The notes below the pieces were generated by a model. It saw nothing but the letters and a program-made list of their open reading frames with translations, was not told where the DNA came from and searched no databases. Shown one piece after another: positions 1,703-63,269 of a stretch of DNA of 64,000 nucleotides (position 1 is the stretch's first letter; every line of letters begins with the position of its first letter). The stretch is from positions 1-64,000 of IMG/VR virus record IMGVR_UViG_3300050011_000542; one strand, written 5' to 3'. A program made the translations under genes and the position numbers. The stretch is from a virus.

Positions 1703-1729
1703 ATAACCACAAGACCATGGAGGGTCTAA

Positions 1730-2323
1730 ATGCTGGTAGGGATCATCGGTCCGAAAGAGTCTGGTAAGTCCACGTTGGCCCTGCAGCTGTGTGAGCACCA
1801 GGGCTTTAAGCGTATGCGCTTTGCTGACACTCTCAAGGAAATGCTGGTTTGTTTCTTTCGGGGCCAGGGCTGCCCCGAGACCAGAGCCTGGGATATGGTC
1901 GACGGCGAGCTCAAGGAAGTCGAAACTCCTTACCTAGAAGGCCGCACGCCTCGCTGGGCAATGCAAAGCCTTGGCACCGAATGGGGCCGGCGTCTTATTG
2001 CCGATCAGCTGTGGGTAAATGTCTGGCGCCGGTCGGTCGAGAAAGCTTTAGCGGCTAACGACAAAATAGTTGTCGACGATGTGCGCTTTGCGAACGAAGC
2101 CAAAGTCATCAAAGAGCTTGGTGGAACACTTGTCCGACTGGAAAGGGACGGCTGTGTTCCGGGCACGCATGCCTCGGAGCGCGAGTACCTCACAATCGGC
2201 CCCGACTTTACGATCATGAACCCGCGCTCTGCCAATAAGACAGAAAGACTTGATCCTCACATGTCTCGACTGGAACTGCTACGACGTTTCACTGCTGGGT
2301 GCATCAAGCATCTTGGGCGGTAA
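1730..2323 (+). CDS. Deoxynucleoside monophosphate kinase (T4 gp1/T5-like)
   Basis: GIIGPKESGKST P-loop, FADTLKE, TPRWAMQSLGTEWGR, VVDDVRFANE, HASE motifs. Confidence 0.9.
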   Translation: MLVGIIGPKESGKSTLALQLCEHQGFKRMRFADTLKEMLVCFFRGQGCPETRAWDMVDGELKEVETPYLEGRTPRWAMQSLGTEWGRRLIADQLWVNVWRRSVEKALAANDKIVVDDVRFANEAKVIKELGGTLVRLERDGCVPGTHASEREYLTIGPDFTIMNPRSANKTERLDPHMSRLELLRRFTAGCIKHLGR

Positions 2324-2325
2324 CC

Positions 2326-3174
2326 GTGAGCGCAATCGATAAGACCAAAGCGCTCAAGCGGCTTGTTGTCCCCGTCGATCAACTGGAGCCGAACCCTAAT
2401 AACCCAAACAAGATGAAGCCCAGCGAGTTTAATTTGCTCGTTGATAATCTCCAACGCACTGGTCTGACCGACGCCATCCTAGTGCGCCGGCTGGGCAAAG
2501 ACCGCTACCGCATTGTTGGCGGCCATCATCGCTGGGAAGCGGCCCGGTATCTCGAATTCTCCGAGGTGCCGATCTGTGTGATCGACGACCCCGACTTCGA
2601 TGACGATGCCGAGACCTTCCAAGTGGTCAGGATGAACGTCATCCACGGCCGCATGGACCCGACTGCCTTTACCGCCCTCTACGAGCAGATGAGCGGTAAA
2701 TACACTGAGGAGATGCTGCAGGATTTGTTCGGCTTCGCGGAAGAGGCCGAGCTTAGAAAGCTGATCAAGTCGACTGCCAAGGGCCTTCCCCCGGAGATGA
2801 AGCAGGCGTTCCAGGAAGCATCCGGGGAAATCAAGACTATCGACGACCTGGCCAAACTGCTGAACAGGCTATTTACCACGCACGGCGACAGCCTTCCCTA
2901 CAACTATCTTTTTCTTGACCACGGTGGAAAAGAGAGCATCTGGCTGCGTATCAATAAGTCGACGCTAGATGCTTGTTTTCTGATTGGAAATATTTGTCGA
3001 GACCGCAAACGCACCATGGACGACCTGGTAGGCTTTGTTCTGCAATCGATTGCAAAGGGCGAGCAGAACGACCTCCTCGACATGGCCCAGAAAGTTACCA
3101 AGGAAGTTGTAATCCCAGCAGGTATGCCTGTGTTGCCCACTAAGGACAACATCAAGGCAGTGATGTCGATCTGA
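2326..3174 (+). CDS. ParB/Sulfiredoxin N-terminal domain protein
   Basis: LEPNPNNPN...ILVR...YRIVGGHHRWEAA ParB-N motifs; GTG at 2326 just after upstream stop. Confidence 0.85.
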   Translation: MSAIDKTKALKRLVVPVDQLEPNPNNPNKMKPSEFNLLVDNLQRTGLTDAILVRRLGKDRYRIVGGHHRWEAARYLEFSEVPICVIDDPDFDDDAETFQVVRMNVIHGRMDPTAFTALYEQMSGKYTEEMLQDLFGFAEEAELRKLIKSTAKGLPPEMKQAFQEASGEIKTIDDLAKLLNRLFTTHGDSLPYNYLFLDHGGKESIWLRINKSTLDACFLIGNICRDRKRTMDDLVGFVLQSIAKGEQNDLLDMAQKVTKEVVIPAGMPVLPTKDNIKAVMSI

Positions 3175-3755
3175 TGTCGACCGAGGCTTACGCACCGCTC
3201 AAAGCCTTGGGCGAACAACGGATGTCCGATCTCACCGATCTAATGGTGACGGGGCAGTCGATCTCGTCGCTCGTGCGCGTGCTGCATGAGGAATGGTGTG
3301 TCTGCCTCGACATGAAAGCCGCAGCTCTGCACAAGATGCTGCAGCGCTACCGCAAGAATGTCGTCGAGCCAACTGAGCGGGAAAGAATTTCCCAGGCCCT
3401 GGTAGCCAAGAGACTGCCAGAAGTAAGGCTCACGTTAAACGCCCTGCACGAGCTCGAAGCCACCATCATGGTGCAGCAGGAGCGTATCCAAAAAGCCTTG
3501 AACACTGAAAATAAGATGCAGGGCCTCTTACTCAAAGATACCCGTGAGGAGATACGCCTATTAAAAGATTTGTTGCATGAACTAGCGATGGTGCAGCTTG
3601 AGACCGGCGTGATGAAGCGTGCCACCAAGACTTTCCAGGGCACTTTCCTCAACCCCGATGGCACCCTCTCGGCCGTGCAATGGACCGAGAAAACCGAAGA
3701 GGCGCTCCAGTTCCTGGAGCAGGATTTGCTTGAACTCGCCGCACCAGCAGATTGA
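3174..3755 (+). CDS. Probable terminase small subunit
   Basis: Helical/coiled-coil 193 aa protein immediately upstream of and overlapping TerL; positional call. Confidence 0.5.
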   Translation: MSTEAYAPLKALGEQRMSDLTDLMVTGQSISSLVRVLHEEWCVCLDMKAAALHKMLQRYRKNVVEPTERERISQALVAKRLPEVRLTLNALHELEATIMVQQERIQKALNTENKMQGLLLKDTREEIRLLKDLLHELAMVQLETGVMKRATKTFQGTFLNPDGTLSAVQWTEKTEEALQFLEQDLLELAAPAD

Positions 3756-62240: not shown

Positions 62241-62289
62241 ACACGAATCACTGGATGTGATTTTCTGATCTCACGGAGGAGATTGAAAC

Positions 62290-63156
62290 ATGGGTATCAA
62301 ATTTACTGGTAAAGCCGCTGCTGCGGTAGCTGCCCAGCCTGATGAAGGCACCCAAGACAATACGGGACAGGCCGGGGCGCACGGAGTTCAGCCAGCCCCT
62401 CTTAGCTTCGTAAAGCCCGGCGTTGCTATTGCAACTGCCCAGGCGGCTCCCAAGTCCACAGTAAGCTGGATGAAGAAGGGTCTCGCCCTCCAGTCAGCTC
62501 TCCAGAAAGACGAAACTATTGCGGCCGAGCGCAAGGCCGACCGTGAGAAGCTCTGGCGCTTTCGCATGAAAGCCGGCCAGGAGCGGACAGTCACCTTTCT
62601 CGACGGCAACCTCGACGCTAACGGCATGCTGAACGCAGTTGCTTTCCGCGAGCATCGTGTACCGTTCCAGGGCGGCTATCAGAACTACATCTGCACCGAA
62701 GACAATGAACCGTGCCCGATCTGCCAGGGCGGTGATCAGTCTTCGTTGGTGTTCGCTTTCACGATCATCGACCACACGCCCTATACGTACACCAGTGGCC
62801 AGAATGCCGGTAAGACGGTGAGTGACCGGGTGAGATTGTTTGCCTGCAAACGAACCTCCTACCTGATGCTGCAGAAGCATGCGACGGCCCAGGGCGGTCT
62901 AGCAGGTGTCACGTTTGAGATTACCCGCACCACCGATAAGTCCCCAGGTGTTGGCGATGTTTTCGTGCCGACCATGAAGAACAGTATCGCCGATATCCAA
63001 GCCCAGCTGCCAGATGCCAAGGTAGCCAATTACGAAGAAGAATTGATCTACCGTGATGCCGCTACCCTGTCTGCTATGGGGCTGGGCAAGACGGTTACGA
63101 CGATCGGCGCCAAGTCTTCGTCTGCAACCATGCAGCAGGCTGAAGATTTGTTATAG
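62290..63156 (+). CDS. Single-stranded DNA-binding protein (gp32-like, Zn-binding)
   Basis: RF...TFLD, EH, C...CPIC, FEITR; position in replication block. Confidence 0.7.
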   Translation: MGIKFTGKAAAAVAAQPDEGTQDNTGQAGAHGVQPAPLSFVKPGVAIATAQAAPKSTVSWMKKGLALQSALQKDETIAAERKADREKLWRFRMKAGQERTVTFLDGNLDANGMLNAVAFREHRVPFQGGYQNYICTEDNEPCPICQGGDQSSLVFAFTIIDHTPYTYTSGQNAGKTVSDRVRLFACKRTSYLMLQKHATAQGGLAGVTFEITRTTDKSPGVGDVFVPTMKNSIADIQAQLPDAKVANYEEELIYRDAATLSAMGLGKTVTTIGAKSSSATMQQAEDLL

Positions 63157-63167
63157 GACGATCTGAG

Positions 63168-63243
63168 GCCGGGTTAGCTCAGTTGATAGAGCACCGCCTT
63201 TGTAAGGCGTGGGTCGGAGGTTTGAGTCCTTCACCCGGCACCA
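63168..63243 (+). tRNA. tRNA-Thr(TGT)
   Basis: 76 nt; acceptor GCCGGGT/ACCCGGC, D-arm GCTC/GAGC, anticodon loop TTTGTAA, encoded CCA. Confidence 0.9.
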
Positions 63244-63269
63244 GACCCCACCACGGATGGTAATCGGGC

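Follow-up and report, generated by a model that had tools for sequence, protein, structure and literature searches.

The RNA-binding proteins CsrA, RsmA and RsmE act at hairpins placed over the Shine-Dalgarno (SD) sequence (E. coli glgC, Pseudomonas hcnA; RsmE-RNA, PDB 2jpp family), in which GGA is presented within an A-N-G-G-A-N hexaloop closed by a C-G pair. Control of this type is regarded as a bacterial global regulon and the csrA genes of phages have so far been read as tools against the host: phage homologues of CsrA/RsmA (F116, DC1) have been catalogued, with manipulation of host Csr regulons or of CRISPR-Cas as the suggested role, and correlate with CsrA-bearing hosts (Campa et al., 2021, PMC8450108). 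The DNA analysed here (the window) comprises positions 1 to 64,000 of the IMG/VR virus record IMGVR_UViG_3300050011_000542, the opening 64 kb of a provirus-class genome of 95,216 bp, approximately 99% complete. About one third of the genes of this phage have a ribosome-binding site (RBS) folded into a hairpin of the CsrA/RsmE kind, and a 103-residue CsrA-like protein is encoded on the plus strand at positions 8644-8955; the phage probably controls its own translation. As in the known bacterial systems, the GGA lies in a C-G closed hexaloop over the SD and the contact residues of strands β1 and β5 are kept. Unlike those systems, the candidate regulator is encoded by a phage, carries a β insertion of about 35 residues and lacks the C-terminal helix, and its candidate targets are about one third of the phage's own genes with a single site each, in a lineage whose relatives infect hosts without a Csr system. 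The locus also differs from the reported phage CsrA/RsmA homologues in that the hosts of its relatives are devoid of CsrA and the candidate targets are RBSs of the phage itself, whereas F116 has no such hairpins. No description of phage RBS hairpins as targets was found in searches of the literature.

A first-pass annotation of the window, made from the letters alone, had reported about 25 such hairpins at start codons, with covarying stems. When stems of at least 4 bp and 3-bp G+C stems were taken in, 25 hairpins were counted directly 5′ of start codons in the window, and the nine that had been quoted individually were all recovered at the same positions with the same arms. Eighteen of the 25 have at least 4 bp (one of them, at 6336, with an AATGAG loop) and seven have 3-bp G+C stems, the latter set including the portal and major capsid genes; the whole genome holds 37 hairpins of at least 4 bp at predicted starts. 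The string CCANGGAKGG occurs 18 times in the window, always on the plus strand, whereas dinucleotide shuffles contain it 1.3 times on average and never more than 5 times, and a stem of at least 3 bp enclosing ANGGAN was found 34 times on the plus strand versus 6 times on the minus strand. A generic scan for GGA loops of 4-8 nucleotides proved insufficiently selective, as its background reached 25-30 per genome, and strict loop definitions were used instead.

Unbiased assessment of pairing was carried out on all ANGGAN hexamers lying no more than 16 nucleotides upstream of predicted starts across the whole genome, chosen regardless of whether their flanks pair. A stem of at least 4 bp is present at 25 of these 49 sites, whereas permutation of the 5′ arms among sites yields 5.1 (maximum 14 in 5000 permutations), and for the CC/GG-closed sites the count is 22 of 29 versus 6.2 expected (maximum 14 in 5000). 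The corresponding controls gave 9 of 352 for ANGGAN far from starts and 4 of 162 for the non-coding strand. At outer pair 4 of the 37 register-aligned hairpins all six standard pair types occur (CG, GC, UA, AU, GU and UG), and sliding the partner by 1-3 columns reduces pairing from 71% to 32-48%; this aligned set had been selected for pairing, and the arm permutation is the unbiased test. Both the motif and its covariation are far beyond chance.

The hairpins follow the consensus nnnn-ACC-A[C/T/A]GGAG-GGT-nnnn and, as had been proposed, match the CsrA/RsmE site C-ANGGAN-G, with GGA in the loop over the SD. The closing pair is C-G in 33 of the 37 genome hairpins of at least 4 bp, and the stems range from 4 to 8 bp in length and from -2 to -8.5 kcal/mol in free energy. 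The distance from the end of the 3′ arm to the start codon is 1-3 nucleotides in 25 of the 37 and 0-6 nucleotides in 34. Loop position 1 is A in 22 of the 27 hexaloop hairpins and position 2 is mostly C or T. Translational coupling is rare for genes behind a hairpin: 5% of them, versus 33% of other genes, follow the preceding gene at a gap of 5 nucleotides or less, and a hairpin of at least 3 bp was found at 43 of 94 uncoupled genes versus 4 of 37 coupled ones. Hairpins are densest among the replication and small genes at 43-95 kb and sparsest in the virion module, where a stem of at least 4 bp is present at just 2 of 31 genes. The earlier description of a master switch acting on nearly every module was therefore an overreach, while the following targets were borne out by family searches: the deoxynucleoside monophosphate (dNMP) kinase, lipase, AAA ATPase, major capsid protein, tail assembly protein, replication initiator and sigma factor, to which a phosphatase can be added. 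Transcriptional control may operate beside the hairpins, given the integrase and helix-turn-helix (HTH) proteins of the genome.

The protein encoded at 8644-8955 is longer than the compact CsrA of 60-70 residues, which has five strands and a C-terminal helix. Strands β1 and β2 are followed by an insertion of about 35 residues between β2 and β3, by β3-β5 with an H-R motif equivalent to Arg44 of CsrA, and by a basic tail in place of the helix. It was matched by the Pfam CsrA profile (PF02599) with 26.1 bits against a cut-off of 27, over its C-terminal part alone, and a sequence search of the PDB returned six weak matches, all of them CsrA or RsmE, with an alignment in two pieces (residues 3-21 to CsrA 2-20 and residues 60-96 to CsrA 24-58). 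An exhaustive search identified 143 representative clusters, nearly all with proteins of 80-130 residues aligned over their full length. In the PDB, a profile built from 76 family members matched the CsrA/RsmE/RsmF/RsmN group and nothing else (best E 1.6e-4), and 59 of the 76 matched Pfam CsrA individually (E no greater than 0.01). The equivalents of the RNA-contacting residues are widely kept among the 76 members: L3 in 75, L5 in 62, K or R at position 8 in 53, I80 in 65 and R82 in 67, corresponding to L2, L4 and R7 in β1 and V42 and R44 in β5 of CsrA. The claim that a CsrA-like protein is encoded here thus holds, and the product is assigned as a real though divergent member of the CsrA superfamily with about 35 residues inserted at the β2-β3 junction; its family, of about 140 clusters, is classified as a previously unannotated branch of that superfamily. 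No PHROG family covers the protein.

The AlphaFold2 model computed from the family alignment is a confident all-β fold (pLDDT 89.5) of nine strands that ends in a disordered basic tail and is without a C-terminal helix. Foldseek returned no match to this model at E of 0.001 or below, and in VIA-align the top rows were generic β sandwiches at noise level, RsmN, at rank 11, being the sole match with real identity (Z 5.6, root-mean-square deviation 1.9 Å, 38% identity over 47 residues; profile E 0.017-0.021). RsmN/RsmF of Pseudomonas aeruginosa (PDB 4kji, 4k59) is likewise a rearranged CsrA member with an insertion at the β2-β3 junction; it differs in that an α-helix is inserted there, whereas the phage-borne family is modelled with a four-strand β meander. 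As a separate observation, three giant proteins of 4,489-7,433 residues (P0004, P0036 and P0109) match residues ~23-91 of the CsrA-like protein, one of them with 12 matched stretches; these matches may be compositional or may point to a repeated β domain akin to the insertion. The RBS of the CsrA-like gene itself is free of a hairpin in 8 of 10 genomes of the clade described below; given the base rates this pattern is not significant, and autoregulation was dismissed.

For comparison across phages every genome was scored uniformly, with a loop of ANGGAN or AGGA[G/T], a stem of at least 4 bp and a distance of no more than 34 nucleotides from a predicted start. On this scale the present phage has 33 hairpins, a prophage of Roseococcus pinisoli 28, Rhizobium phage RHph_TM16 (TM16) and genome G002 19 each, G001 15, G011 12, Rhodobacter phage RcZahn 10 and a phage contig in a Burkholderiaceae metagenome-assembled genome (MAG) 6. 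On a tree of portal proteins these genomes form one clade (support 85/90), and each carries a close relative of the CsrA-like gene. Genomes poor in hairpins but still equipped with a more distant CsrA-like gene make up its sister clade: G014 has 4 hairpins, G004 3, G005 1, and DLP_5 and G003 none. SIO-2 and RcDurkin, which are without the gene, have 1 and 0, respectively. The expectation that csrA-like genes and hairpins go together in relatives held in one direction, as every hairpin genome has the gene, and failed in the other, as the sister clade has the gene without the hairpins; the gene alone is therefore insufficient and does not imply the regulon. On this tree the hairpins are placed as having arisen once, inside a larger group that already carried the CsrA-like gene. 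Where an orthologous hairpin persists, its stems differ by compensatory changes, as illustrated by a 433-residue protein at genome position 70122 (CACC/GGTG, TTTACC/GGTAAA, TCATC/GATGA and CATC/GATG among orthologues) and by the AAA ATPase (GGCC/GGCT here, GATAA/TTATC in TM16 and G001).

The motif belongs to the phage and not to the host. R. capsulatus YW1 was the isolation strain of both RcZahn and RcDurkin. The latter is similar to the former in size and layout, yet it lacks the cassette with the kinase and CsrA-like genes and has no hairpins. In the 4.8-Mb genome of Roseococcus pinisoli, CCAWGGAGGG occurs 72 times, about 37 of these within the ~95-kb prophage on its coding strand, and for CCAAGGAGGG the density in the prophage exceeds that of the remaining chromosome about 170-fold. 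A translation habit of the host was dismissed on these two grounds. Canonical CsrA (PF02599) was not found in R. pinisoli or in three MAG hosts of relatives, in searches whose positive controls matched, nor among 81 genomes sampled from the Rhodobacter host family.

We propose that the hairpins are operators on phage mRNAs read by the long CsrA-like protein, a reading to which we give an even chance. The hexaloop A-N-G-G-A-G/T, closed by C-G, would hold the SD GGAG while the 3′ arm occupies the interval between the SD and the start codon; the protein would clamp the loop and the closing pairs through its β1 and β5 edges, in the manner of CsrA/RsmE, and the clamp would exclude the 30S subunit. 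Translation of some 35-45 independently initiated genes would then drop as the CsrA-like protein accumulates, and the genes affected would be mostly non-structural (replication initiator, sigma factor, polymerase, ATPase and many small genes of the early region). Binding, repression rather than activation, and timing are steps that we infer from the known systems. A fuller picture, which we put forward as a speculation and hold to be improbable in its entirety, is a self-contained translational control for hosts without Csr: a single-site, insertion-bearing CsrA-like repressor with one hairpin per gene, subject to antagonism by the neighbouring GNRRF-motif protein, to switching by the dikinase and the two phosphatases on its flanks, or to both, might silence about one third of the phage genes (among them sigma factor, replication initiator and polymerase), for instance as a timer of the lytic programme or as a second safeguard of lysogeny.

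Several findings weigh against a CsrA-like reader. Its Pfam score falls slightly below the cut-off; the gene is older and more widely distributed than the hairpins, being present in DLP_5, G003, G004, G005 and G014 with 0-4 of them; and all hairpin genomes lie in one clade, so that descent confounds the association, which amounts to a single evolutionary event. Pseudomonas phage F116 carries an unrelated short CsrA-like gene (33363-33569, within the virion module) without hairpin enrichment (1 of 19) and was for that reason dismissed as an independent replicate with a canonical-like phage CsrA. Hairpins are also gained and lost quickly between orthologues within the clade, as a tunable cis feature would show too, and the loop of several relatives is AAGGAG, simply an ideal SD. 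These last points, with the sister clade that has the gene and no hairpins, favour a serious rival that we nonetheless consider rather unlikely, namely that the hairpins are a habit of this lineage for independent RBSs and have no dedicated reader: the SD would be displayed in a loop, shielded from the cistron upstream or from mRNA structure formed over long distances, and the rate of translation would be set by stem stability. The shortness and weakness of the stems, the near confinement of hairpins to uncoupled starts and the extension of GGAGG by the first G of the stem fit such a device. It is harder to reconcile with the depletion of RBS structure in other phages, including one on the same host, and with the coincidence of a motif equal to the CsrA consensus and a CsrA-family protein in every hairpin genome. 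In addition, AC or AT before GGAG reduces pairing with the anti-SD here, yet the A at loop position 1 and the C-G closure are kept, a pattern that fits recognition of A(N)GGA and favours a protein reader over a device that purely displays the SD.

If a protein does read the hairpins, it need not be the one at 8644. A stand-alone protein with the RapZ C-terminal RNA-binding domain is encoded outside the window at genome positions 73543-73899 (PF22740, 73.9 bits), itself behind a hairpin RBS, and its gene occurs in 6 of the 7 genomes with hairpins, whereas all 7 genomes poor in hairpins are without it. The Roseococcus prophage, with 28 hairpins, is without it and only the full-length RapZ of its host is present there; RapZ-C was on that account dismissed as an obligatory reader. 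Recognition of GGA loops is not known for RapZ, and the domain is the weaker candidate, ranked below the CsrA-like protein because the known specificity of the latter's family matches the motif. T4 RegB, an endoribonuclease that targets GGAG, is a precedent for phage attack on this sequence in the SD, and a RegB-like enzyme, or else a host RNA-binding protein, could read the hairpins; no RegB-like gene was identified in this phage, however, and in a phyletic profile of all its genes only virion genes track the hairpin clade perfectly. Taken together, another factor acting in trans is an improbable explanation. Less credible still, and in our judgement very improbable, is binding by the host's own CsrA/RsmA, by which the phage would exploit the Csr status of the host or soak up its CsrA, with the phage protein as a modulator. 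The motif is the canonical CsrA/RsmE site, and of 301 genomes sampled from the class to which the hosts of the relatives belong, 62 carry CsrA. For the Roseococcus and Rhodobacter systems, however, canonical CsrA was not found although their phages have hairpins, so that, as far as the sampled genomes show, host CsrA cannot read them there; it was dismissed as the reader for these relatives. A sponge RNA was not seen either: an Rfam scan of the window gave only the tRNA, and a candidate after the tRNA with two GGA hairpins was dismissed, its fold having a z-score of -0.49 versus shuffles in a region that is coding.

Were the CsrA-like protein confirmed as the reader, the phage would carry a portable, self-sufficient translational regulon on a previously unannotated branch of CsrA, in hosts without CsrA. 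T4 RegA, a translational repressor, and RegB are phage factors that act on many phage RBSs and are functional analogues of such a phage-wide post-transcriptional regulon; they have no homology to the 8644 protein, and RegA sites are not GGA hairpins. The same pattern in the cultured phages RHph_TM16 and RcZahn makes the proposal directly testable, and the pair of hairpin and protein is a candidate orthogonal translational switch.

The window hairpins, all on the plus strand, are given here in order as 5′ arm, loop and 3′ arm. AGACC-ATGGAG-GGTCT (1712-1727) lies 2 nucleotides before ATG 1730 of the dNMP kinase gene (Pfam DNMK); it is followed by GCCA-AGGAG-TGGC, with a 5-nucleotide loop (5588-5600), before ATG 5604 (61 residues), by GACC-AAGGAG-GGTC (5789-5802) before GTG 5805 (157 residues), and by ACACC-AATGAG-GGTGT (6336-6351), the loop of which is without GGA, before GTG 6353 and 5′ of the kinase gene, where the start assignment is uncertain. 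CTCC-ATGGAG-GGAG (9240-9253) precedes ATG 9257 of a tyrosine-phosphatase-like gene, TCCC-ATGGAT-GGGG (11641-11654) precedes ATG 11661, in frame with the open reading frame (ORF) 11649-12467, and TCACC-ACGGAC-GGTGA (13314-13329) precedes ATG 13333 of the DNA polymerase gene (789 residues), which is in synteny with relatives. Stems of 3 bp come next: GGC-ACGGAG-GCC (15734-15745) before GTG 15751 of the portal gene, CCC-ACGGAG-GGG (19370-19381) before ATG 19385 of the major capsid gene, ACC-ACGGAT-GGT (20449-20460) before ATG 20465, GCC-ACGGAG-GGC (22640-22651) before ATG 22655 and GCC-ATGGAG-GGC (25112-25123) before GTG 25128 (139 residues, tail module). TCCC-ACGGA-GGGA (23620-23632), with a 5-nucleotide loop, stands before ATG 23641 (419 residues, virion module), CGCT-TAGGAG-GGCG (32541-32554) before GTG 32557 (172 residues), and the 7-bp CACGACC-ACGGAG-GGTTGTG (33099-33118) abuts TTG 33119 of the tail assembly protein.

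Further downstream, AACC-ACGGAG-GGTT (43144-43157) was located before ATG 43163 (142 residues), TCACC-ACGGAT-GGTGA (44559-44574) before ATG 44577 (class 3 lipase), and the 8-bp CTCGAACC-AGGAT-GGTTTGAG (45861-45881), atypical in its spacing, 13 nucleotides before ATG 45895. GGCC-ATGGAG-GGCT (54803-54816) precedes ATG 54820 of the AAA ATPase gene, GACC-ATGGAG-GGTT (56712-56725) precedes GTG 56728, and the 6-bp TAGACC-ATGGAG-GGTCTG (57088-57105) precedes the replication-initiator gene, which starts at TTG 57106 or GTG 57115. TTCCC-ACGGAG-GGGAA (59898-59913) stands before ATG 59915, with TCAAT/ATTGA in the TM16 orthologue. ACACC-ACGGAT-GGTGT (60366-60381), before ATG 60388, is among the clearest and belongs to the phage-encoded sigma-factor-like protein (phrog_1740, 60388-60864). 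The 7-bp TGATCTC-ACGGAG-GAGATTG (62266-62285) precedes ATG 62290 (288 residues), and the 3-bp ACC-ACGGAT-GGT (63250-63261) directly follows a tRNA-Thr gene and precedes a 45-residue ORF (ATG 63270).

The CsrA-like gene lies in a conserved cassette (6415-11600) common to TM16 and RcZahn, which comprises a dikinase-like kinase with PPDK_N and PEP-utilizers domains only, the CsrA-like gene, a small ORF with a GNRRF motif and two phosphatases of the dual-specificity/protein tyrosine phosphatase (DSP/PTP) type flanking an unknown protein of 361 residues. The PHROGs label 'thymidylate synthase' on these phosphatases looks like a misannotation. The small ORF (8906-9229, plus strand) overlaps the 3′ end of the CsrA-like gene, adjoins it in nearly all relatives and possibly encodes a partner of the CsrA-like protein; no lead was obtained for it in Pfam, PHROG or Atlas. 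In Bacillus subtilis fliW adjoins csrA, the two products forming the CsrA-FliW partner switch, and the placement of a small conserved gene directly beside a CsrA-family gene is alike here, although similarity to FliW was not detectable. The same neighbourhood of dikinase, CsrA and phosphatase is found in Vibrio phage vB_VneS_J26, where ORF99 is annotated as CsrA beside a dikinase and a phosphatase (PMC12038007).

Nearly all genes of the phage are on the plus strand, and the right end (genome 93775-95216) encodes an HTH_17 (excisionase-like) protein and a tyrosine integrase, from which the phage is taken to be temperate. Nucleotide relatives were not found by megablast against the phage collection, and searches for related loci with the single CsrA-like protein, the single portal, A1 or A4 gave no match. 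By portal protein the nearest named relatives are Rhizobium phages RHph_TM16 and RHph_Y1_11, Rhodobacter phage RcZahn and the Stenotrophomonas DLP_5-like phages, with the Vibrio SIO-2-like phages more distant, and related prophages were located in large contigs of Roseococcus pinisoli and of a Reyranellaceae MAG. TM16 and RcZahn have the gene order terminase, dikinase-like kinase, small CsrA-like gene, small ORF and tyrosine phosphatase in common, followed further on by DNA polymerase and portal.

A 14-bp palindrome, TGCAAYYRRTTGCA, occurs in 32 copies in the genome (from 3041 to 60984 in the window and on to 92702 in the genome) and a looser form, GCAAnnnnTTGC, in 35 copies, 20 of which are intergenic; it may be an operator, promoter or terminator element. 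Six copies adjoin a hairpin RBS and form part of its 5′ arm, and a link between palindromes and hairpins was dismissed, just 6 of 37 hairpins adjoining one. The window carries one tRNA-Thr gene (anticodon tgt, 63168-63243), and this anticodon recurs in a tRNA of TM16. Genes on the minus strand are few; one of them, at 53924-54661, encodes a class I S-adenosylmethionine methyltransferase and was noted in connection with a stretch of higher G+C content (48-52 kb, 61% G+C).

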